Shown: piece after piece, positions 8,976-63,463 of the stretch
Numbering within the stretch: position 1 is the first letter of the stretch
How the letters are laid out: the number at the start of each line of letters is the position of its first letter
DNA from: Alphaproteobacteria bacterium
Lineage (GTDB): Bacteria; Pseudomonadota; Alphaproteobacteria; UBA7887
Assembly: GCA_965201115.1 (NCBI GenBank)
Contig: OZ241745.1
Coordinates: 258,308-322,307, forward strand
DNA length: 64,000 nt
Reading direction: 5' to 3'
Program-made: the position numbers and the translations under genes
Notes under the pieces: model-generated
The model's database searches: none
Told to the model about the DNA's origin: nothing
What the model saw: only the letters and a program-made list of their open reading frames with translations

Positions 8976-11900
8976 ATGACCACTGGCGACCGGCGCCCGC
9001 AGGGCTCGAAAAGCGACGACCTGTTCGGCGCAATCGAAGGCATGTTGCGGCGCAGGAGGACGGAGCCGCAGGTCAAGCAGGTATTGACCCGCATTTTCGC
9101 GGCCCTTCGCTGCGACGCCGAGCCCGAATACCGGACGCCGGCCGGCCCCGCCGATTTCTACCTGCCCGCGCGGCGCATCGTCGTCGAGGTCAAGCCCACG
9201 GGAAAGGCCGACCCAGCCGCGACCTACGGCGGCGCGGGCGCCGCGGAGACGCAGCTCGAGCAGCTCACGCGCTACGTTCGCTCGGAGGAGACGCGCGAAA
9301 ACCGGTCCGGCGATGTCTCCGCCGGCAACGTTCCGTGGGTAGGGTTCCTGACCGACGGGCGCCAATGGCGGCGCTACGAATATCCGCGCGACGGCGGCCG
9401 GCCCGCGCTCATGGACGGCCCCGCCCCGGTCCGTTTCCATCCGGGACAGGCGGCTGAACTCGTCGGCTGGCTGGAATCCGCGATCGCGCGCTCCGCCGGA
9501 AAACCCTGGGTTCCCCCTCATCCATACGATATCTTCGAACCTTTCGAGCGCAGGCTGCACGGGATTCACGAACGCCATTGGGCGTCCGGAGGTTCGGTCG
9601 GGCGCGGCGTCGAAACGAAATCGGGCATATGGTACGACATGCTGCGCGCGTCGGGGATGGCGCCCCGAAGCGCGCCGCACAGGCATCGGCTTTTCGTGCA
9701 ACATACCGTGCTGGTAAGCGTCGCCCGGGCGGTGGTGGGGGCCATCGCCGGCGGCGAGGCCGAACAGGATCCCGATTACGCGCTCAGGGACGGTTTCGCA
9801 GCATGGCCGCAAGGGACGGCGGACGGACGAGCCTGGCAGCGGGAGATATTCGAAACCGCGTCCCGCTACGATTGGCGCGGCCGGGCCGGCGATGTTCTGA
9901 GGACGTTGTACGAAGACGTAATCCCTTCGGAAGATCGCAAGGCTTACGGCGAGTATTATACGCCCGATTGGCTGGCCGCGATGCTCGCGGACGAAATTCT
10001 CGATGATCGGTGGGCGAACGACAGCGCGTCGCGCGCGCTTGCGCCGGGCGATGACCTGTCGGGATGCGGCGTTCTGGACCCCGCCTGCGGGTCGGGGACG
10101 TTTCTGTACCACGCGGCCCGGAAGGTTCTTCGCGCGCAACCGCTTCGATCCAGGGAGTTGACCGGCACGCAAAAAGCCGATGTCGCGGCGGCTCTTGTAC
10201 ACGGTATCGACGTGCATCCGGTCGCCGTCGAAATTGCGCGGGCGACCCTGCTTCGGGCTCTCCCCGCCGCGCCGAGCGGCGGAACGGCCGCGCTGCGCGT
10301 CTATCAGGGCGATTCGCTGGTCGTCCGGCGGGGGCAAAACCCGCTCCTCGAGGAGGGGGAAGGAAAGTTTACCGTTTTTGCGAAAAGCGGGCAATTCGTC
10401 TTGCCCGGCGCTTTCGTGCGCCGGCCCGATTTCTCCCGGGATATCCGGCGGCTGGTCGAAAGCGCGAGCCAAGGCTCCGATCTGCCCCGCGATCTCGCGA
10501 GCCGGAATACGCGCGGGGAATCCCGACCGATCGAAGAGGCGCACGAGAGCCTGCGGAACATATGCCGGCGCGAAGGCAATTCCGTGTGGGCGTGGCTCGT
10601 TATTAATATCGTCGCTCCCACGCTGCTGGCCGAACGCAAGGTGGATCGGATCGTGGCGAACCCGCCCTGGGTCGTCATGAACGACGTACAAGTGGAGGAT
10701 CGCAAAAGCGAGTTCCAGTCTCTTGCCAGGGAGCTTGGCGTATGGACCGGCGGAAAGGGCGCCGCGCGCGCGGATATCGCCGCCGTGTTCATCTCCCGAT
10801 GCAGCGACTTGTACCTTGGCGAGAATGGGCGGGCGGCATGGCTGGCGAACCGCGCGTCGATCGCAAGCGACAGCTGGAAGGGGTTTCGCGAGGAATGCGG
10901 CGCGCGCATGCGCGAGGTTCTCGATCTATCGGAGATAAGGGAACCGCCGTTTACGGGCGCGGCGTCGTGCGCGTGGATCGAAGACAAATCGCGCCCCGCC
11001 GCCGGAATCGCGCGGCGTATCGTCGGAACGTCCGATAATTCCCGGATACCGCGCGATGCGCACTGGGAAGACATAAAGGGCAAAATCGCGCGGGCCGATC
11101 CCCCGCCGCGGATCCCCGCCGGCCCATCGGGTTACCTCGATCGGCAGGGGAAACCCTTGTTTCGCGCGGGATGCAATCTCTTCCCGCAAAACCTCGTATG
11201 CATCGCGAAAATCCAGCGGCGCGGCGATGGCGCGGCATCTTTCGTCACGCGCGGCGCGCGCCACAAGCCCTGGAAGGACGCCGGCAATCTCCAGGGGGTT
11301 GTCCCCGGCGAGCAGATTGTAGAGGGGATATTGCCCGACGATCTGCTGCCGTTCGCGCTTCGGAATCCGGCGACCGCATGCGTGTTGCCGATTCGAAACG
11401 GAGAACTGTCGGAAGAAGCGTTGCGTTCGGAAAGCTACTGGCGCAAGGCGAGCGCGCTGTACGACGATAACCGCGGCGCCCGCGCGCCGAAAACGCTTGT
11501 CGGACATTTGAATTATCAGGGGAACCTGGCGCGGCAACTCCCGTTGTCCAGGGGCGGGAGATCGGTGGTAATCTACAACGGATCGGGGAAACTCTTGCGC
11601 GCGGCCCGCGGCGACGGGTCCGCTCTGGCCGAACATAAATGCTACTGGCGCAGGTGCGCCGGCGCGGACGAAGCGGCGTATATCGTCGCCTGTCTCAATG
11701 CCGACGCGCTTCAGGCGGCGTTCGGACAGGCGCGAAAGAACGACAGGGATTTCGAAGCGCATTTCTGGAAGGATGTTCCCATACCGCTGTTCGACCGGGA
11801 AGATCCCGCGCATCGGAAGCTGGCGGAGTTGTGCGGGAAAGCGGAGGACGCGGCGAAGCGCGTACGGGACGCGGCGGGACGTTGGCGCGCCGAAACCCAG

Positions 11901-12323: not shown

Positions 12324-12494
12324 CTCAGTGTCTGTACCGAAATACTTACCCCGCCGAAGGCGGGGCCCGGGACCGCGGGCATCCTGCCCGCACGTTCCCG
12401 CAAGGCGCGATGTCGGCGGGGAAGCGCGAACGGACAAGACGCCCGCCGGTTCCCACCGTCCCGATAACCGCCGAATTCCGGTACAGACTCTCAG
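12324..12494. mobile_element. MITE-like element (171 bp): IS5/IS427-type terminal inverted repeats flanking a REP-like palindromic core
   Basis: TIR-L ctcagtgtctgtaccgaaat (12324-12343) and TIR-R attccggtacagactctcag (12475-12494) are about 17/20 complementary. A near-identical terminus, atttcggtacagactctgag, closes the IS5 remnant at ~22502. The REP core ccccgccgaaggcggggcccgggaccgcgggcatcctgcccgcacgttcccgcaag lies at 12352-12410 (approx). Confidence 0.5.
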
Positions 12495-40357: not shown

Positions 40358-41223
40358 GGTCCTGTCTCCACGGGCGTGTCGGCGCGGCCGCCCCAATCGG
40401 TCCACGAGCCGTCATAGACAGCAACCCGGTCGTGGCCGATGAGGTGCAGGCCGAGGGCGAGATTGCAGGCGGTGACGCCGGACCCGCAGGAGGTAATGAC
40501 CGGGCGGTCGGTATCGATTCCCGCGCCGCGGAAGAGCGCGGCGAGGGCATCGGCCCCTTTCATCGTTCGGGTATCGGCGTCGTAGAGTTCGAGAAACGGA
40601 AGGTTGCGCGAGCCGGGTATGCGGCCGCCGCGCAGCCCCGGGCGGGGTTCGGGTTCGGTCCCGGCGAAGCGGCCGCGCGTGCGCGCGTCGAGTATCCGTT
40701 CGGCGCCCGATTCGGCGGCGGCGCGCACCTCGCCGCGGCTACGAACCAGTTGCGGCGCCGGCGGGACGGGGTACGAAGCCGGCGCGGGCCGCGCGGCGCC
40801 GCTCTCGACGGGCCGGCCCTCGGCGCGCCATTTCGGCAGGCCGCCGTCGAGCACCGAAACCCGTTCGTGGCCGAAAGCCCGGAACATCCACCATGCGCGC
40901 GCAGCGCTGCCGACGCCGGTCGCGTCGTAACAGACAACGTGCGAATCGGCGGCGACGCCGAGCGCCCCCGCCTTTTCCGCGAAGGTTTCCGCGTCCGGCA
41001 GCATGTGCGGAAGCGGATTCGCCGCATCGGCGATGTCGTCGATGTCGAAGAAGACCGCGCCGGGAATATGGGCCTCGGCGAACTCGGCGCGCGGGTCGCG
41101 TTGCAGCGCCGGCATGTGCCACGAGGCGTCGATAACGCGGATTCCCGGGGCGGGCGCCGCCGGTCCCGCGCGCGCGGCGAGCCACGCGGTGGATACGAGC
41201 GCGCCGGGGTTGGCATAGGCCAT
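40354..41223 (-). CDS. 3-mercaptopyruvate/thiosulfate sulfurtransferase paralog (SseA-like)
   Basis: Active-site CGSGVTAC; about 45% identical to the downstream paralog. Start taken at MAYANPGAL. Confidence 0.8.
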   Translation of the reverse strand: MAYANPGALVSTAWLAARAGPAAPAPGIRVIDASWHMPALQRDPRAEFAEAHIPGAVFFDIDDIADAANPLPHMLPDAETFAEKAGALGVAADSHVVCYDATGVGSAARAWWMFRAFGHERVSVLDGGLPKWRAEGRPVESGAARPAPASYPVPPAPQLVRSRGEVRAAAESGAERILDARTRGRFAGTEPEPRPGLRGGRIPGSRNLPFLELYDADTRTMKGADALAALFRGAGIDTDRPVITSCGSGVTACNLALGLHLIGHDRVAVYDGSWTDWGGRADTPVETGP

Positions 41224-41374
41224 GTCGTTCTCCCGTGTCATGGCGGCAGCTATCGATGTCGACCGAGCCGCGCCCATGTTTTCATGCCCGTCGAGGCTGT
41301 TTCCCGGCGGTCGCGGCGAGGCGACATCGATAGCCCTCGATACCATACCGACGGTTGTCGGAATCGGCACGTTT

Positions 41375-41415
41375 TACGGGACCGCGGGCGTCCCCGCCCG
41401 CACGTCCCGACATGC
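41375..41415. repeat. REP-like repeat, variant B (partial), downstream of the autotransporter stop
   Basis: cgggaccgcgggcgtccccgcccgcacgtcccgac. Confidence 0.4.
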
Positions 41416-41521
41416 GCAAACGCCGCCGCGCCGGGCGCGACGATCGCCGCTCCCCGGCAACAGCGCGGCCCGCGGCAACGTGCGGGCGAGACGCCCGCGC
41501 GCCCGGGAAGCGCGCCCGCGA

Positions 41522-44500
41522 TCAGAACCGCACGGTGAGTGCGGCGCTGCCGCTGAAGTCGCGGTTGCCGTTGCGGGCGGCGGCGTAGGCGGCGTTGGCG
41601 CGCAGCGCTATGCGGCCGTCGGCCCATTCATGGGCGGCGCCCAGGCCGAGGCGGGCCCATGTCGCTTCCGCTTCGGCCTTGAAGGGCGGCCTGTCTTCCG
41701 CCGTCGCCTCCATTGCGCCCGACAGTTCGCGCTCCAGGTCCAGCGTTGCGAACATGGCGCCGGCGCCGCCGGGGAGGGCGGCGGACTCGGCGCGCACGCC
41801 CGCGCGCGCCGTAATCCGTCGACCGGCGTCCAGAGACACGCGCTCGCCCATCGCGTCCGTGAACGACGACATCTCCACCATCGACCAATCGGCGCCCGCG
41901 CGCGGCGTCAGCGCCACGCGGCCCAGGTCGAGCCGCCGCCCGATCTCCACGCCGGCGGCGTAGCCGCGGCCCGAAAGATCGCGCGCAAGCGCGCCCTCGA
42001 GCGCCGCATCCGAATCGAGGTCCGCCTCGTACAGCGTCGCCGCGGCATGGCCGCTCACATAGACGTTCTCCGCCGGCAGCCACGCGCCCGATATGCGCGC
42101 CCCCGTGCCGGTTATCTCGATGCGGCCGCCGCCCGCCTCGGTGTCCGCGTCCGCCTCCACATCCGCGCGGCCGCGCACATGATGAACGGAGACAGCGAAC
42201 ACGCCGCGCTCGCCCGCCGCGCCCTCTATCCCCGCCTCGAACCCGAAGCGGCGATAGTCGTGGCGCGCCGCCGCCGTCGAGGAGGCCGGATGGCGCTCGC
42301 CGCCGCCGGCGTCGAGACGCGCGAACGCCCCCCGCGGCGCGCCCGCGGCGGCGAACCGGTCGCCGTGGGCGGGCAGCGCGTTCAGCGCCAGCAGCGCCGA
42401 AGGCAGCGCCTCGTACACGCGATGCCGCGGCGCAGGCCCGACCTCGATACGCTCGTCGCCGGTTATCCGGAGCATCGAATCGGCGCGGCCCTCGCGCTCG
42501 AGGACGATGGTGGCGCCGCCGGCCTCGATGCGTCCGCCGCCGACGCGCAGCACGGCGTCTTCGTCCGATTCGCCCGCGGCGGCCTTCACTGTCACCGCGG
42601 CCGCGCCGGCGATGGGCTCCTCGATGCGTCCGTTCTCGCCCACCGTCACCGCGCCGCGGGGCGCATCGACGCTCTTCACCGCGCCGTTCACCTCGACCGT
42701 GCTGCCGGTCCCCGCCAGCGTGACCCGGCCGTCGATTTCGCCGCCGGCCCCCACCGTCACGGTCGAAGCGGCGCCGGCGTCGCGCGCCTCCACGGCGCCT
42801 TCCACCATGCCATCGACCGTCATGCTCAGCGCGCCGGTTTCGGCGACGACCGCAACGCGCCGGCCCTGCGCGTCTTCCGCGCCCACGAGTTCGCCGCCCG
42901 CGGCAACCTCGACCTTGCCGCCGGCGGGAACATGCAACATGCCTTCCGCATCCCCGGCCATGGCGATGAACTCGACGCCCCGGACGTTCCCCCTGAACTC
43001 CGCGCCGGACGCCACCGTCAGCCGATGCGCGCCGCCGCCGCCGCCGATGACGTCGCCCGTCAGCGCGTTCGCGACCGCCACCGTCAGCGCCCCGGGGCCC
43101 AGGTCCTCGATGCTGCCCACGACATTGCCGTTCACCATCACCGTCAGGTCGCCGCGGGCGTTGCGCACCGCCCGCCCGTCGAGGCCCGATATGCGCCCCC
43201 CGGAACTCACCTCGACCGTTCCGCCGCGGTCGAACTGCACGCTCGCGGCCGCGCCATCGACCGTAACCTTGCTGGCCGCGAGGCGGATGAGACCCTCGAC
43301 CGATCCGCCCGATTTCACATGAACGTCGTGTTCGCCGCCGCCGAGGCCGAATATCCCGCCCTCGACGGTTCCGCTCACATCCACGTCCAGGTCGCCCTCG
43401 CCCTCGCCGCGGATGGCGCCCGTCACGGTCGCCCGCGCCGCCACGTCCACCGTCAGATCGCCCGCCGCGCTCCGGATCGCCTCGCGACCGCGGTCCGACG
43501 TATCGATGCCCGTTACCGCGCCGCCGGACGCAACCGTGACCGAGCCGCCGTTGTCGTAGAGTACGCGCCCCACGCGGCCCGCCACTGTCATCGCGCTCGT
43601 CGGCAGATGCACCGTGCCTGTCACCGCGCCGCCGGCCATCGCTGCAACCGTGTGCGAACCCGCGCCTGTCCCGCCGATGTCGCCTTCGACCGTCCCGCTC
43701 ACTTCCACGTCCAGGTCGCCGTCGCCCGCGCCGCGGATATCGCCGGTCACGGTCGCCCGCGCCGCAACATCCACCTCCAGATCGCCCGCCGCGCTGCGTA
43801 TCGCTTCGCGACCGCCGTCCCCGGTCTCGACGCCGGCAATACTCCCCGTCGCCGCAACCATCACCGATCCGCCATTGTCGTAAAGCACCCGCCCCACGCG
43901 GCCCGCAATCGTCATCGCGCTTGTCGGAAGATGCACGGTCCCCGTCACCGCGCCGCCGGCCATCACCGCAACCGTGTGCGAACCCGCGCCCATGCCGCGA
44001 ATGCCGCCGGTAACCGTCCCCGTCACCGTCGCCGTCAAATCCCCCGCGCCGCGCTCCTCGATGTCGCCCGTCACGCGGCCCGCCACCGATGCAACCAGAT
44101 CGCCGGCCTCCATATCCACGATATCGCCCGTCACCATGCCGCCGGACGCGACCGTAACCTCGTGCTTGCCGGCGCCCTTGCCGTGGATGGCGCCCGTCAC
44201 CGCGCCGCCCACATTCACGGTCATGGCGCCCGCGCCGCGCCCCTCGATGCGGCCCATGACCGCCCCGCCGGACGCAACCGACACCGTCAGGTCCCCCGCG
44301 TCGGCGCGAATCGCCTCGCCGCCGACGCCGGCGATGCGGCCCGTCGCCGCAACCGTCAACGCGCCGCCGTTGTCGAACAGGACGCGCCCCGCAGCGCCGC
44401 GGATCGTCGTCCCGCTCTTCGGGTTATGCACCGTCCCCAACACCCGCGCCTTCTCAGCGATCTCGATGGTATGCACGCCGCCGCCGCGACCGAAAATCTC

Positions 44501-47500
44501 CCCGTTAATCGTGCCGGTCTCCGACACCGTCACCGTCAGGTCGCCATCGCCGCGCGCCTCGATATTGCCCGCGACCGTCCCGTGAACGGTGACCGCCAAA
44601 TCGCCCGCGTCGCCGCGGATCGCCTCCTTCGTTCCGTCGATATCGAGGCCCGTAATCTCGCCGCTGGCGTTGACCGTAACCGCGCCCCCGTTGTCGTAGT
44701 GGACGCGCCCGACATCGCCCGAGACCGTCAGCGCCGCGCCTGTCGGCAGGCGCACCGTTCCGGCAATGGCGCCCGACGACGCCACCGTAACCGTGTGTTC
44801 GCCCGCGCCCTCGCCGGTAACGCCGCCCGTCACCGTTCCGGCGACCGTGACGTCCAGGTCGCCCGCGCCGCGCTCGGCGATATCGCCCGTCACCGCGCCG
44901 GCGACGTCGACCTCGAGATCGCCGCCGCCGCGGCCCTCGACGAGGCCCGTGACCGCGCCATTGGCCGCGACCGTGACGTCGAGATCGCCCGCGTCGGCGC
45001 GAATCGCCTCGGTCGTTCCATCGTTATCGACGCCCGTTACCGCGCCGCCGCCGGCGACCGTAACCGTCCCGCCGTCGTCGTAGAGAATGCGCCCGGCGCT
45101 GCCGCGCACGGTCGTCGGACTCGCGGGGTTGCGTATCGTGCCCGTCACGACGCCGCCGGCCATGACGTTCGCCGTCAACGCGCCGTCGCCGGAGGGGCGA
45201 AGACCGCCCTCGATCCGGCCCGCTACCGTGACGGAAAGATCGCCCGACACGGCGCGAATCGTCTCGGTCGCGCCGTCGATCGCGATGCCCGTAATCGCAC
45301 CGCCCCTGGCGACCGTAACTGTCCCCCCGCCGGCATAGAGAATACGTCCGACGCTGCCGCCCACGGTCATCGGACTCGCGGGGTTGTGTATCGTGCCCGT
45401 CACCGCGCCGCCGGCGTTGACGGTTGCCGTCAGCGTGCCGCCCGACTTGACGTCGCCCTCGACGCGGATCCCGTCGTTCACCGTGACGGTCAGCGCGCCG
45501 GCCGCGCTCTCGATGGCCACGCCCTCGACGCCGGTCAGCGTCCCGCTCCCGGACACCGTCACCGTCCCGCCGCTGGCGTAAAGAATGCGCCCGATGCTGC
45601 CCGCGACTGCAAGCGCGGTCTGCGGGTCGTGTATCGTCCCCGTCACGACGCCGCCGTCCATGACATTCGCCGTCAACGAGCCGCCGCCATCGACGCGGAT
45701 GTCGCCCGTGACCCGCCCCGAAACGGTGGCCGTCAGAGCGCCGCCGCCGTCGCCGAGGATGGCGACGCCCGATGTTGCGCTCACCTCGCCGTCCGCGCCC
45801 ACGGTCACCGCGCCGCCGCCGAACAGATGCACGCCCGCGCCGGTTCCGCCCATCGCGGCCCCGTGTACCGTCACCTGCTGGTTGCGCACGCCGCTTGTGA
45901 CGCCCGCGCCGCGGACATAAATGCCCTTCGCCCCGCCGGTAACCCGCGCGCCCGCCGCAACCGTCACCGCGATGGCGCCGTTGCTGGCATGCGGAACGAC
46001 GTAAAGCGCCTCCACGCCGTTCCCCTCGGCGTCGATGGCGCCGCCGGTCACGTCCACATGGATGTCGCCGGCGTTGTAGGTCAGCGCGTGTTGCCGGACC
46101 GCGTTCTTCCAGTCGGCGTCGTAGGCAGCGTCGGGAAGGGCGGTCAGCGCCGCCTCCAGATCGGTCCCCGACCCCTTCGTCAACACGGCCGTCAGCGCCG
46201 CGCGCTCAGCGGTCGAAAGCGCGTCGCCGGCGCGGACACGATCGGCGATCGCCGTGTGCGACAGCGCCATGGCGCGAACGCCCGCGCTCGAAAGGCCCAA
46301 AATCTCCTCCGCCGCCGCGTGCGCCAGCGGGCCGTCGCCGGTCGCCGCGGCGGCCGCCGCGGCGCGCTTGCGCCGGAGATCCTCCGCCTCCGCCTTCCAG
46401 GCGGCGTCGTAAGAAGCCGGGAGCGCCGCCAGCGCCGTCGTCAGCGCGCTCGAATCGTTCGCCGTTATCGCCGCAAGCACGGCCTGTTCCGCCGCCGACA
46501 GCGTCTCGTCGGCGCCCGCGATCCGGCCCCGGATGAAAGCCTCCGTCACCGGCGCGCCCACCATGATGCTTCCGCTCGACGTAACGTGGATCATCGGCGT
46601 CGTCCGCGCCGCGTCGTCCGCCGTCGTGGCGCCCGCGCCCATCGTGTGGCCGCTCGACCGCGGGGCCCACGCGAGAACGCCGGCATCCCGCGCCTCGACC
46701 GCGCCCCCATGCGTGACCGCGATGCGCCCCGTGGCGCTCGCGTTGTTCGTAAGCCGCCCCTCCATGCCGATGGAGAACGGCGACGCGATCTTCGCCGGCG
46801 CCGCCGTCGTCATAGCGACCGAGCCGAGGTTCAGGGAGTGCGTCAGAATGCCCTTGGCGTCCAGCCCCTCCACCGCGATGCTGCCGCCGGTCACGGCAAT
46901 GGGAACCGTCTTGCCGGCCGCGAGGGCGGAGAACACCCCCACAACGCCGTGGGCGTTGTCCTGCTCCGTCACGATGGAGCCGCCCGACATGCGGAAGGAG
47001 TGGTTGCCGGGCCCGTTGCCGCGCTCCATGACAACCCCATGGGCGGAGAACCCGAAGGAGGACCCGCCCCGCGTGCGGATCGCGCCGCCCTCGACGATGA
47101 CGGTTATGTCGCCTGCCCCCGTGCCGTTGGAAAGGGCCAGGACGCCATAGCTGCCAGCTCCCGTCGTCTCGACCGAGCCGTCTGCCATGCGGATGGAGAG
47201 GTTGCCCGTCCCGTTGTTTTGGCCGTGGATGGCGTAATTGAAGTTGCCCGCCGCCTTGATGACGGCGTTGCCGGAGACGACGATGGATGCGTTGCCCGAC
47301 CCGCCGCTGAGTATTTGGGCGACGAGTTTGCCGGCGAGGGAGCCGCCGCTCATGCTGGCGGAGACGTTGCCCGCCCACATTCTCCCGCCGGTGACGGAGG
47401 CGTTGCCCGTGAGGGAGGCGCCCGTTATGCCGATGGCGCCGTTGCCCGACCCGAGCGCCCGGACTACAACGCTCAGGCCGCCCGACCCTGTGAGTGTGGC

Positions 47501-47737
47501 GCCGGACTTTACGCTGACGGTTACGTTGCCGGAGCCGCTGTGCTCGGCGTCGATGCGCGGGATGTTGACGCTTCCCGGGTCGACGACGATGTGGGCGCTG
47601 CTGCCGGCGGCTTCGGTGCAGGAAATGCTCGCGCTGCCCGTATGCGCGCCGCCGCGGCACTCGGTCTGCGCCGCCGCCTCCCCGGCCCACAAGGCGAGCG
47701 CGAGAACCAGCCCCGGCGCGAGCGCCCGGACGCTCAT
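41522..47737 (-). CDS. giant autotransporter adhesin (type Va secretion; beta-helical repeat passenger + C-terminal beta-barrel translocator)
   Basis: Signal peptide MSVRALAPGLVLALALWAGEAAAQ. Dozens of ~70-aa G/T/V-rich repeats (GGAVTGTIHNPASPMTVGGSVGRILY...). The C-terminal ~280 aa have an autotransporter barrel signature ending ...SAALTVRF. 2071 aa. Confidence 0.85.
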   Translation of the reverse strand: MSVRALAPGLVLALALWAGEAAAQTECRGGAHTGSASISCTEAAGSSAHIVVDPGSVNIPRIDAEHSGSGNVTVSVKSGATLTGSGGLSVVVRALGSGNGAIGITGASLTGNASVTGGRMWAGNVSASMSGGSLAGKLVAQILSGGSGNASIVVSGNAVIKAAGNFNYAIHGQNNGTGNLSIRMADGSVETTGAGSYGVLALSNGTGAGDITVIVEGGAIRTRGGSSFGFSAHGVVMERGNGPGNHSFRMSGGSIVTEQDNAHGVVGVFSALAAGKTVPIAVTGGSIAVEGLDAKGILTHSLNLGSVAMTTAAPAKIASPFSIGMEGRLTNNASATGRIAVTHGGAVEARDAGVLAWAPRSSGHTMGAGATTADDAARTTPMIHVTSSGSIMVGAPVTEAFIRGRIAGADETLSAAEQAVLAAITANDSSALTTALAALPASYDAAWKAEAEDLRRKRAAAAAAATGDGPLAHAAAEEILGLSSAGVRAMALSHTAIADRVRAGDALSTAERAALTAVLTKGSGTDLEAALTALPDAAYDADWKNAVRQHALTYNAGDIHVDVTGGAIDAEGNGVEALYVVPHASNGAIAVTVAAGARVTGGAKGIYVRGAGVTSGVRNQQVTVHGAAMGGTGAGVHLFGGGAVTVGADGEVSATSGVAILGDGGGALTATVSGRVTGDIRVDGGGSLTANVMDGGVVTGTIHDPQTALAVAGSIGRILYASGGTVTVSGSGTLTGVEGVAIESAAGALTVTVNDGIRVEGDVKSGGTLTATVNAGGAVTGTIHNPASPMTVGGSVGRILYAGGGTVTVARGGAITGIAIDGATETIRAVSGDLSVTVAGRIEGGLRPSGDGALTANVMAGGVVTGTIRNPASPTTVRGSAGRILYDDGGTVTVAGGGAVTGVDNDGTTEAIRADAGDLDVTVAANGAVTGLVEGRGGGDLEVDVAGAVTGDIAERGAGDLDVTVAGTVTGGVTGEGAGEHTVTVASSGAIAGTVRLPTGAALTVSGDVGRVHYDNGGAVTVNASGEITGLDIDGTKEAIRGDAGDLAVTVHGTVAGNIEARGDGDLTVTVSETGTINGEIFGRGGGVHTIEIAEKARVLGTVHNPKSGTTIRGAAGRVLFDNGGALTVAATGRIAGVGGEAIRADAGDLTVSVASGGAVMGRIEGRGAGAMTVNVGGAVTGAIHGKGAGKHEVTVASGGMVTGDIVDMEAGDLVASVAGRVTGDIEERGAGDLTATVTGTVTGGIRGMGAGSHTVAVMAGGAVTGTVHLPTSAMTIAGRVGRVLYDNGGSVMVAATGSIAGVETGDGGREAIRSAAGDLEVDVAARATVTGDIRGAGDGDLDVEVSGTVEGDIGGTGAGSHTVAAMAGGAVTGTVHLPTSAMTVAGRVGRVLYDNGGSVTVASGGAVTGIDTSDRGREAIRSAAGDLTVDVAARATVTGAIRGEGEGDLDVDVSGTVEGGIFGLGGGEHDVHVKSGGSVEGLIRLAASKVTVDGAAASVQFDRGGTVEVSSGGRISGLDGRAVRNARGDLTVMVNGNVVGSIEDLGPGALTVAVANALTGDVIGGGGGAHRLTVASGAEFRGNVRGVEFIAMAGDAEGMLHVPAGGKVEVAAGGELVGAEDAQGRRVAVVAETGALSMTVDGMVEGAVEARDAGAASTVTVGAGGEIDGRVTLAGTGSTVEVNGAVKSVDAPRGAVTVGENGRIEEPIAGAAAVTVKAAAGESDEDAVLRVGGGRIEAGGATIVLEREGRADSMLRITGDERIEVGPAPRHRVYEALPSALLALNALPAHGDRFAAAGAPRGAFARLDAGGGERHPASSTAAARHDYRRFGFEAGIEGAAGERGVFAVSVHHVRGRADVEADADTEAGGGRIEITGTGARISGAWLPAENVYVSGHAAATLYEADLDSDAALEGALARDLSGRGYAAGVEIGRRLDLGRVALTPRAGADWSMVEMSSFTDAMGERVSLDAGRRITARAGVRAESAALPGGAGAMFATLDLERELSGAMEATAEDRPPFKAEAEATWARLGLGAAHEWADGRIALRANAAYAAARNGNRDFSGSAALTVRF

Positions 47738-47761
47738 GGCGCGTTTCCCGAGGCGGGCCGC

Positions 47762-47781
47762 GGGGGGGGGGGGGGGGGGGG
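47762..47781. repeat. homopolymeric G20 (C20 on the coding strand) tract about 25 nt upstream of the autotransporter start codon
   Basis: cg-g(20)-tacg read directly from the sequence; lies in the promoter/5'UTR of the 6.2-kb adhesin gene. Confidence 0.8.
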
Positions 47782-48016
47782 TACGTTTAATTGCACGGCA
47801 AGCGCGGGCGCGGGCGCAAGCCCGTTGTACGGAAGGGGCATTGTCATGACGAAGCGCTCCTCGGCGGAATCGGATGCCACGCGGGCGCCGCCGCTATGCC
47901 ACGCGCCGCGCGCGCGCGCAACCGTCCCGGGGCGCGCCGCGCTTCCCGGGATGGCGGGCGCGTCCGCGACGCGCCGGCGCTCGCGGAAAACGAGTCGACA
48001 TCGGCGCCTCTTGCGA

Positions 48017-48694
48017 TCAAGCGCCGAACACGATGTTGACGCGGCGGTTGCGGCGGCCCTTGTTCTCGATCTTCGACACGCGGACGGGGCCGATCTCGCC
48101 CGTGCGCGCGACATGCGTGCCGCCGCATGCCTGTAGATCGACGCCTTCCACCTCGATCAGCCGCACCGTTCCGGCGCCCCGCGGCGGCGCGACCGACATG
48201 GTCTTCACCAGCGTCGGGTCGGCGTCGAGCTCGGCCTCGGCGACGACGCGCGGCGTAACGGGCAGGTCGCGCGCGATGAGCGCGTTGAGCGATTCGGTCA
48301 GCGCGGCCTTGTCGGGCCGCTCGCCGTCGAGATCGAAATCGAGCCGGCTCTTCTCCTCGCCGACCTGCCCGCCGGTAACGGCGCCGGGCACAAGCGCCGA
48401 CAGCAAATGCAGGCAGGTGTGCATGCGCATCAGGCGGTGGCGGCGCGGCCAGTCGATTGCGGCCGACACCGCCGTTCCGGGCGCGAAAGCGGCGAGGTCC
48501 GCGCCGGCGGCGGGAATATGCAGGATAGCGCCATCCTCGCCCCGCACCGTGTCGGCGATGGCGATTCGCGCGCCGCCGGCCGCGAGCGTTCCGCGGTCGC
48601 CGGGCTGGCCGCCGCCGCGCGGATAAAAGACAGTCCGGTCGAGCCGCACGCCGCGCGAATCGACCGCAACCGCCGCGGCGTCGCAGCCGCGCAT
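48017..48694 (-). CDS. AlaX-M-like alanyl-tRNA editing protein (Ser/Ala-tRNA(Ala) hydrolase)
   Basis: FYPRGGGQPGDRG, then zinc motif HTCLHLL...CGGTHV. About 225 aa from MRGCDAA. Start uncertain: a GTG 11 codons upstream would give 236 aa. Confidence 0.6.
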   Translation of the reverse strand: MRGCDAAAVAVDSRGVRLDRTVFYPRGGGQPGDRGTLAAGGARIAIADTVRGEDGAILHIPAAGADLAAFAPGTAVSAAIDWPRRHRLMRMHTCLHLLSALVPGAVTGGQVGEEKSRLDFDLDGERPDKAALTESLNALIARDLPVTPRVVAEAELDADPTLVKTMSVAPPRGAGTVRLIEVEGVDLQACGGTHVARTGEIGPVRVSKIENKGRRNRRVNIVFGA

Positions 48695-62506: not shown

Positions 62507-62583
<77 letters not shown>

Positions 62584-62626
62584 CCCGCAACCACCCCCCC
62601 CCCCCCGCACCGAAGACGCAAACTCC

Positions 62627-62856: not shown

Positions 62857-62975
62857 GCCTGCTTAACTCCTTTCCGGCTCGGTGTCGTCGCGCGAGGATC
62901 CGCGCCAAGGGCATATGGGCCGCCCGCAAGGCAGTTGCAACCCCACGTCGATCCCGTCGCCCCACCCGTCGGCAT

Positions 62976-63463
62976 AACCCCGCCGAAGGCGGGGCCCGGG
63001 ACCGCGGGCATCCTGCCCGCACGTTCCCGCAAGGCGCCCCCCCCGGCGCGTAAGCGCGCCGCCGGCTTGCGCAAGACGCAACCCCGCCGAAGGCGGGGCC
63101 CGGGACCGCGGGCATCCTGCCCGCACGTTCCCGCAAGCCGCGCCCCCGGCATGTAAGCGCGCGCCGGCTTGCGCAAGACGCAACCCCGCCGAAGGCGGGG
63201 CCCGGGACCGCGGGCATCCTGCCCGCACGTTCCCGCAAGGCGCACGCCCGGCATGTAAGCGCGCCGCCGGCTTGCGCAGGACGCAACCCCGCCGAAGGCG
63301 GGGCCCGGGACCGCGGGCATCCTGCCCGCACGTTCCCGCAAGGCGCGCCCCCGGCATGTTAGCGCGCCGCCGGCTTGCGCAAGACGCAACCCCGCCGAAG
63401 GCGGGGCCCGGGACCGCGGGCATCCTGCCCGCACGTTCCCGCAAGCCGCACGCCCCGCGTGTT
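62976..63463. repeat. tandem array of five REP-like units (102-103-bp period) downstream of the rRNA operon, abutting the IS1380-family left end
   Basis: Five copies of (g)caaccccgccgaaggcggggcccgggaccgcgggcatcctgcccgcacgttcccgcaag(g/c)cgc...ccggcatgt(a/t)agcgcgccgccggcttgcgcaagac. The last unit is cut at ...gttagcc by the IS. Confidence 0.85.

Follow-up and report, generated by a model that had tools for sequence, protein, structure and literature searches.

Homopolymers that change length by slippage are already known as a general kind of expression switch, with PmpG of Chlamydia, NalP/MspA and UspA1/Hag as examples. In Bordetella fim and in porA and opc of Neisseria meningitidis the homopolymer forms a promoter spacer, and the tract lies between the -35 element (or an activator site) and the -10 element, with a total spacing of about 17 nt in the ON state. 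Haemophilus influenzae lic1A and lic2A carry a tetranucleotide repeat downstream of alternative starts, where the repeat number picks the start that is in frame and more than two expression levels result. Homopolymer tracts have been described in Bordetella (PMC1891110), and in the PmpG autotransporter family of Chlamydia, with 2–12 paralogs per genome, polyG/polyC tracts of 8–24 nt lie mostly deep in the open reading frame (ORF); their lengths do not follow phylogeny and their frame states are mixed, which has been read as slipped-strand on/off switching (PMC6740158). N. meningitidis NalP/MspA and Moraxella catarrhalis Mid/Hag carry a homopolymer of 6–13 nt within the 5' part of an autotransporter coding sequence (PMC3723659, PMC7302503), and in M. 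catarrhalis uspA1 a G(n) tract situated 29 bp 5' of the adhesin ORF gives graded expression through the mRNA level (PMC7302503). Translational coupling by upstream ORFs (uORFs) and occlusion of the ribosome-binding site (RBS) are documented in an alphaproteobacterium, Sinorhizobium meliloti (PMC13285730). Here we describe a 20-nt homopolymer in front of a giant autotransporter gene in a 64-kb stretch of DNA (the window; positions 258,308 to 322,307 of contig OZ241745.1, assembly GCA_965201115.1) from an uncultured bacterium labelled Alphaproteobacteria. The tract is very probably a slippage-prone expression switch of the well-known general kind, and we give a probability of about 0.6 to the reading that it is a slipped-strand contingency tract controlling production of the autotransporter, most likely through translation and not through promoter spacing.

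The plus strand of the window has exactly 20 consecutive G residues, read as C20 on the coding strand, and exactly 24 nt separate them from the start codon called for the autotransporter gene (Table 1). An initial annotation of this DNA had placed a run of 20 G at 47762–47781, about 25 nt 5' of a start codon at 47735–47737, and direct count and measurement agree with it. The tract is uninterrupted and of slippable length (about 8 nt or more). Under a model of independent and identically distributed bases, 4e-5 runs of 20 or more are expected in the window, and a G12 query gave 11 overlapping matches at two sites where dinucleotide-preserving shuffles lead one to expect 0.04 matches. The GC content of the window is 68.3%, yet runs longer than 8 are otherwise avoided. 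Chance is no explanation for the G20 run. The second site of the G12 query is a C13 run at 62594–62606, the first base of which lies directly 3' of a tRNA-Met gene at the end of an rRNA operon; the initial annotation was therefore wrong in calling the G20 run the only long homopolymer in the window.

Read along the coding strand, the locus consists of a first Shine-Dalgarno sequence (SD1), an upstream ATG (ATG1), 22 codons, C20, 24 nt with a weak second Shine-Dalgarno-like sequence (SD2), and the ATG of the autotransporter gene (ATG2) followed by its signal peptide. Poly-C encodes proline in every frame, so that adding or removing a single C hardly changes the leader peptide and alters only the phase at ATG2. 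We simulated the frame outcomes in the window sequence for tract lengths of n = 14–27. At the assembled length of n = 20 (also 17 and 23) the 37-aa leader ends at a TGA that overlaps ATG2 as ATGA, at n = 21 (also 18 and 24) the leader is joined in frame to the gene as a 2108-aa pre-protein with an N-terminus resembling that of the paralog P0006 as called, and at n = 19 (also 22) a 546-codon out-of-frame reading runs across ATG2. Ribosomes starting at ATG1 would reach ATG2 in a phase set by the tract length. With 21 C residues they would make the in-frame fusion from the strong upstream RBS; with 20, the ATGA geometry would suit coupling of termination to reinitiation; and with 19, out-of-frame ribosomes would cross ATG2 and occlude it, for which the lowest output would be expected. 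The three frames should hence differ in protein output, and a change of expression with each tract unit is predicted in silico from this frame arithmetic.

Table 1 Positions of the features at the autotransporter locus in the window, followed by poly-G promoter spacers at more distant autotransporter genes of related genomes (L numbers denote loci in related genomes, with positions counted in the locus named)
Feature	Position	Strand	Remarks
Giant autotransporter gene	41522–47737	-	2071 aa + stop; ATG at 47735–47737
C-terminal autotransporter beta-barrel, PF03797	41591–42304	-	E = 1.1e-25; 91 bits against a cut-off of 26
Mid-module of about 300 aa, residues 316–616	45890–46792	-	defines the family; no Pfam match
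Predicted Sec signal peptide, MSVRALAPGLVLALALWAGEAAA then Q	47669–47737	-	read by inspection; motif kept in >50 homologs
Leader TGA stop	47734–47736	-	overlaps the gene's ATG, forming ATGA
Start2 (ATG2), ATG of the autotransporter ORF as called	47735–47737	-	next base A, hence overlap with the leader TGA
SD2, weak Shine-Dalgarno-like GGGAAA	47744–47749	-	6 nt before start2; GAGGAG or AGGGAG in relatives
Homopolymer tract	47762–47781	-	C20 (G20 on +); poly-Pro in any reading frame
Leader ORF, MTMPLPYNGLAPAPALAVQLNVPPPPPPPRPASGNAP and stop	47734–47847	-	start1 (ATG1) at 47845–47847; 37 codons; contains the tract
SD1, GAGGAG	47857–47862	-	9 nt 5' of the upstream ATG (start1)
Poly-G promoter spacer, L054	8117–8145		TTGCAA-c-G16-TATATT; spacer 17 nt
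Poly-G promoter spacer, L057	8073–8086		17 nt
Poly-G promoter spacer, L026	9765–9779		17 nt
Poly-G promoter spacer, L047	8087–8098		17 nt
Poly-G promoter spacer, L061	8629–8641		18 nt
Poly-G promoter spacer, L024	15736–15751		16 nt
Poly-G promoter spacers, L062, L025, L012 and L048			12–15 nt

The exact protein of the window gene occurs once, in one assembly, on a contig of 3,674,140 bp. That contig also holds at least nine paralogs of the autotransporter among the matches listed, the tracts of which are known from the N-termini of the called proteins and not from DNA. Paralogs P0002, P0003, P0006 and P0035 are called with N-termini that read through poly-proline into the signal peptide, and the leader is fused in frame, as called, in P0002 (MTMPRPYRGF...PPP...MSVRAL) and P0006 (MTMPCSYRGF...PPPPPPP...VSARAF; N-terminus MTMPCSYRGFAPAPALAVQINVPPPPPPPAAGERGVSARAF...). 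About two dozen homologs from other assemblies have the same type of N-terminus. A scan of one genome per species gave 63 loci, all in chromosome-level metagenome-assembled genomes (MAGs) and mostly labelled Alphaproteobacteria, and in related MAGs no fewer than 25 giant autotransporter genes, paralogs or orthologs, have a tract of C9–C32 (median 16) at the equivalent position. Tracts directly 5' of the signal-peptide codons include C32 (L002), C30 (L017), C26 (L001), C25 (L008), C23 (L009 and L020), C22 (L014), C20 (L005 and L018) and C19 (L011). In 1.63 Mb of related loci there are 56 homopolymers of 10 nt or more, all of them G or C; 32 are located at 5' ends of genes with the family mid-module, and about 10 others are found ahead of further ORFs that have a signal peptide or resemble autotransporters.

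The arrangement around the tract is kept as well. Every tract-bearing relative examined has a strong SD1 (GGAGGAG, GGGAGAGG, GGAGGAGAGAAGCCC and similar) and an ATG or GTG upstream of the tract, from which the ORF enters the tract, and this holds across at least four unrelated leader sequences. A second Shine-Dalgarno sequence and a second start, which opens the signal peptide, follow 19–34 nt past the tract. This start is ATG, GTG or TTG followed by A in 27 of 27 relatives, giving an NTGA overlap in each; as a baseline, 21% of codons in the gene begin with A and 39% of the serine codons are AGY. At the 23 loci for which we determined frame states, leader and gene are fused in 12, joined by an overlapping stop in seven and out of frame in four. 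Because SD1 and its start are kept upstream of the tract, the leader ORF is probably translated, with the tract setting its frame relative to the gene. A static poly-proline linker was rejected, given that 11 of the 23 loci are out of frame when those with the overlapping stop are counted, and the mature protein has no proline run longer than two. A G-quadruplex or i-motif as the general mechanism was rejected too, given that tracts in the family go down to C9–C12, too short to form either.

Tract length differs between relatives that are otherwise nearly identical. L014 and L020 are two copies in the MAG OZ241738, and L066 is one copy from an independent ENA assembly; their tracts are C22, C23 and C14, respectively. 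A single-nucleotide polymorphism and an 18-bp duplication are the sole differences in roughly 520 nt of aligned flanks, with 100% identity over the 600 nt that follow the tract. On a single ENA contig, the paralogs L064 and L069 have the same DUF1499 gene upstream and the same leader, yet their tracts are C16 and C22. Length polymorphism between otherwise identical sequences, the hallmark of a contingency locus, is thus found in the relatives, and differences of 6–9 nt between copies cannot be consensus error. They are the comparative signature of a slippage hotspot and, as sequence evidence, speak strongly for hypermutability in the relatives, not in the window gene. Scans of Joint Genome Institute (JGI) metagenomes for relatives gave none in one and a single remote match (29% identity) in the other. 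The initial annotation had taken the tract for a likely phase-variation switch, hypermutable and acting through promoter spacing or untranslated-region (UTR) structure, and had pointed to tract lengths across strains as evidence to look for. The recurrence of position and the length variation in relatives favour the switch, and the two mechanisms named for it found no support; lengths do vary between near-identical relatives, and the window gene itself has one assembly.

Among the described systems, PmpG is the closest analogue in design, with multi-copy autotransporters (at least 10 here) and intermixed frame states. It differs in that the tract here is part of a leader ahead of the signal peptide, with a second start after it, and in that the hosts are uncultured Alphaproteobacteria-labelled MAGs of about 68% GC. 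Pfam found neither the Pmp repeat (PF02415) nor the Pmp middle domain (PF07548) in the protein, which has PF03797 alone; with this as the sole shared domain, the likeness is one of design and not of homology. NalP/MspA and Mid/Hag likewise have a G/C run near the 5' end of the ORF, where the frame decides whether the full-length product is made from the upstream start. Those are simple on/off switches for which no downstream RBS and start with overlapping stop have been described, whereas here the tracts are 9–32 nt long and two of the three frames may still give protein. The uspA1 homopolymer shares the position, about 25–30 nt upstream of the annotated autotransporter start, but no upstream RBS or start is reported there, whereas a conserved Shine-Dalgarno sequence and ATG precede the tract here. 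In lic1A and lic2A all starts lie upstream of the repeat, and neither a downstream start nor an overlapping stop is known there. The fim, porA and opc switches differ in that the window tract has no -10 element after it, exceeds a workable spacer and lies downstream of a Shine-Dalgarno sequence and an ATG. The S. meliloti uORFs resemble the leader in that an upstream RBS or uORF overlapping or abutting the main RBS raises output (coupling) or lowers it (occlusion); they are genetically fixed, whereas the hypermutable tract described here would shift a single uORF among the states of fusion, coupling and occlusion. What appears to be new is the family of proteins, the organisms, the great length of the tracts, and a layout in which the tract has an RBS and a start on either side, with the NTGA overlap conserved.

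The other mechanisms considered fare less well. No -10-like hexamer follows the window tract, the tract alone is longer than the 17 nt of a fim-, porA- or opc-type spacer, and tracts of up to 32 nt in the family do not fit between -35 and -10 elements. Promoter-like elements lie instead upstream of the tract in relatives, as in L004, where TTGTCT-18-TATAAT ends 54 nt upstream of it. A plus-strand promoter (G20 followed by TACGTT/TTTAAT) was considered and rejected, as there is no -35 element, the tract exceeds spacer length and no plus-strand gene lies downstream. Nor is an effect on UTR structure borne out: the leader RNA is less structured than its shuffles (z = +2.1), with the poly-C stretch predicted to be unpaired, and an Rfam search of the leader gave no match, on which grounds a riboswitch or structured-UTR model is rejected. 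These results also weigh on an untranslated tract of the uspA1 type, which would change transcript level or stability or the conformation of the UTR and to which ATG1 and SD1 would be irrelevant. The position, 24 nt from start2, is similar to that of the uspA1 G(n) tract, which lies 29 bp ahead of its gene and alters mRNA level (PMC7302503), the leader peptide is not conserved, and start2 with its Shine-Dalgarno sequence is able to function alone. However, the Shine-Dalgarno sequence and start kept upstream of the tract across divergent leaders argue for a translated leader, the NTGA overlap at start2 is kept in 27 of 27 cases, there is neither a promoter match nor a -10 element after the tract, and lengths of 9–32 nt are incompatible with a core-promoter spacer; we regard this explanation as unlikely. 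Somewhat less likely still is a rheostat graded by tract length, in which poly-proline would stall leader ribosomes (dependent on EF-P) and/or poly-C RNA would load Rho, so that length tunes premature termination or access to SD2, and in which slippage of RNA polymerase could yield mixed-frame mRNAs from any DNA length. Poly-C encodes proline in all frames and is predicted to be unpaired, the tracts (median 16, maximum 32) are far longer than a frame switch requires, and poly(C) RNA is a strong ligand of Rho. Polyproline stalling, moreover, breaks the coupling of translation to transcription and makes rut sites accessible to Rho (PMC5021804). The rheostat is built on such reasoning and leaves the conserved NTGA overlap unexplained, and other subfamilies use poly-G, which encodes poly-glycine and is not a Rho ligand, at equivalent or different positions, so the chemistry of C is not general.

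At more distant autotransporter genes of related MAGs, poly-G exactly fills the gap of a TTGnnn-TAnnnT promoter at total spacers of 12–18 nt (Table 1); the promoter-spacing model is real for these genes of related lineages and unfit for the window gene. Elsewhere G tracts lie within signal-peptide codons, as poly-glycine before the hydrophobic core (L023 9663–9674, L007 5503–5519), or end 1 nt before the start as G17/G18-c-ATG/GTG (L038 8347–8364, L052 8308–8324), where the tract itself may serve as the RBS, and L050 has the dual-start leader of the window at a more distant autotransporter gene. The recurrence of several mechanistic placements points to selection for switching and not to neutral expansion. 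A neutrally expanding homopolymer, tolerated through an autonomous start2 and inherited by gene duplication, would account for tracts shared by common ancestry, for interrupted and decayed copies (L065, CCCCCCTCCTCCCCCC; P0050, ..PPFSP..) and for the start2 that stands alone in L001. It is improbable, since pure tracts hold their position across proteins that are 45–66% identical in at least 12 genomes, these genomes otherwise avoid runs longer than 8, and G or C tracts have been placed independently at other autotransporter genes, including the promoter spacers. An assembly or sequencing artefact can be all but dismissed: long homopolymers are error-prone, with lengths off by about 1 nt, and all sources are metagenome assemblies, but no fewer than 15 independent assemblies have the feature at the equivalent position, one of them as an interrupted version on a short-read scaffold, and differences of 6–9 nt between copies exceed consensus noise.

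Several observations weigh against a translational frame switch. A promoter scan of 47500–48200 found none. The distribution of frames does not differ significantly from uniform (chi-square p = 0.12), and the excess of in-frame loci has a one-sided p = 0.048 over loci that are not independent. The leader shows no conservation at the peptide level, and indels of a length not divisible by three separate related leaders. Start2 has its own Shine-Dalgarno sequence in relatives, and a tandem family gene at position 15952 of L001, without leader or tract, retains GAGGAGcgcgtcATGAGC (SD2-ATGAGC), which indicates that start2 can work alone and that out-of-frame states may be leaky. RNA polymerase slippage on a long tract could blur the frame states, and a long-read consensus may err by 1 nt at a 20-nt homopolymer, which makes the n = 20 state uncertain. 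Finally, switching of the window gene within its population would be extrapolated from its relatives. We nevertheless favour the translational frame switch at the probability given above. A three-state switch of a kind not described before, with fusion, NTGA reinitiation and occlusion plus tuning by length through polyproline stalling (EF-P) and/or Rho loading, on at least 10 paralogs per genome, is a more tentative proposal and in our view rather doubtful as a whole; it is plausible that polyproline stalling or access of Rho would give graded effects.

The label autotransporter given in the initial annotation holds, and the adhesin function named with it is putative. The protein has the C-terminal PF03797 barrel and the N-terminal Sec signal peptide of type Va autotransporters, the latter identified by eye from the sequence and not by a dedicated predictor, and these two predicted elements point to a surface or host-interaction product with an outer-membrane barrel. 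The barrel was found by scanning the last 380 aa alone (E = 1.1e-25); the full-length 2071-aa protein has no Pfam and no NCBIfam match and misses it. The C-terminus reads ...LTVRF, with a terminal phenylalanine. The passenger is rich in repeats and in Gly/Val/Thr, without a Pfam match, and a PDB sequence search with the protein gave none. The mid-module is carried by 119 of 120 homologs at 54–88% identity and includes a pair of segments that are rich in Ala and probably helical (AEQAVLAAIT...ALPASYDAAWKAEA; ERAALTAVLT...ALPDAAYDADWKNAV), an unusual feature for an autotransporter passenger. Two tandem duplications in the passenger, at 43357–43990 (324 nt x 2.0, 84% identity) and 44965–45440 (255 nt x 1.9, 82%), could recombine and so give variation in size or antigenicity. 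Precomputed Pfam domains are likewise lacking for many homologs; the passenger with its many repeats seems to interfere with domain detection, and by hiding the domain it leads routine annotation to overlook the family. A 2304-aa antisense ORF (41222–48136, plus strand), longer than the real autotransporter gene, was rejected as a GC-rich shadow ORF, given that it has no family matches and overlaps an alaX-like gene.

Family genes also occur in tandem arrays (L001/L002 on OZ241870.1, L006, L016 and L066); the gene at position 15952 of L001 begins directly after the stop of the preceding gene, and the product of the next gene in L066 has 7378 aa. Some carriers are labelled Gammaproteobacteria or Nitrospirales, and L007 and L035 have a GC content of 56–62%; either the taxonomy of these MAGs is coarse or the family has spread horizontally between phyla sharing a habitat. 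A 5'UTR block is kept between the promoter-like region and SD1 in L006 (~9760–9820), L011, L014, L018, L020 and L021. It consists of a duplicated CATTCGGGAGC motif around a GC hairpin (GCCCGCCGCCGCGACGGGC), is absent from the window leader and may be a regulatory RNA element. At 12366–12398 of L044, not beside a family gene, C14-GTAGC-G14 forms a perfect inverted repeat of two 14-nt homopolymers.

The C13 run elsewhere in the window follows a tRNA-Met(CAT) at 62517–62593, with a stretch resembling 5S rRNA upstream, and is itself followed by a terminator-like GC hairpin, gccgccgaatttcggcggc. Downstream of the rRNA operon, at ~62940–63200, a unit of ~110 nt is present in tandem copies (...ccccgccgaaggcggggcccgggaccgcgggcatcctgcccgcacgttcccgcaag...), with C8 (63037–63044) in one copy and C5 in the next, which makes it another C run of variable length.

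Homopolymer contingency loci have become known mainly through a small number of cultured pathogens, and here they are found on a large scale in uncultured, high-GC MAGs. About 10 giant autotransporter paralogs (6–7.7 kb) are present per 3.7-Mb genome, each reported with its own C9–C32 tract, a pattern pointing to selection on the cell surface, by host, phage or grazers, that is strong and fluctuates. Gene callers assign inconsistent starts and full-length Pfam searches miss the barrel, so that standard annotation shows neither the family nor its switches. As a design for a translational switch, whether three-state or graded, the dual-RBS leader with its conserved NTGA overlap lends itself to direct testing. 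If true, a three-state switch on at least 10 paralogs would give these uncultured host-associated bacteria a combinatorial, graded surface repertoire.

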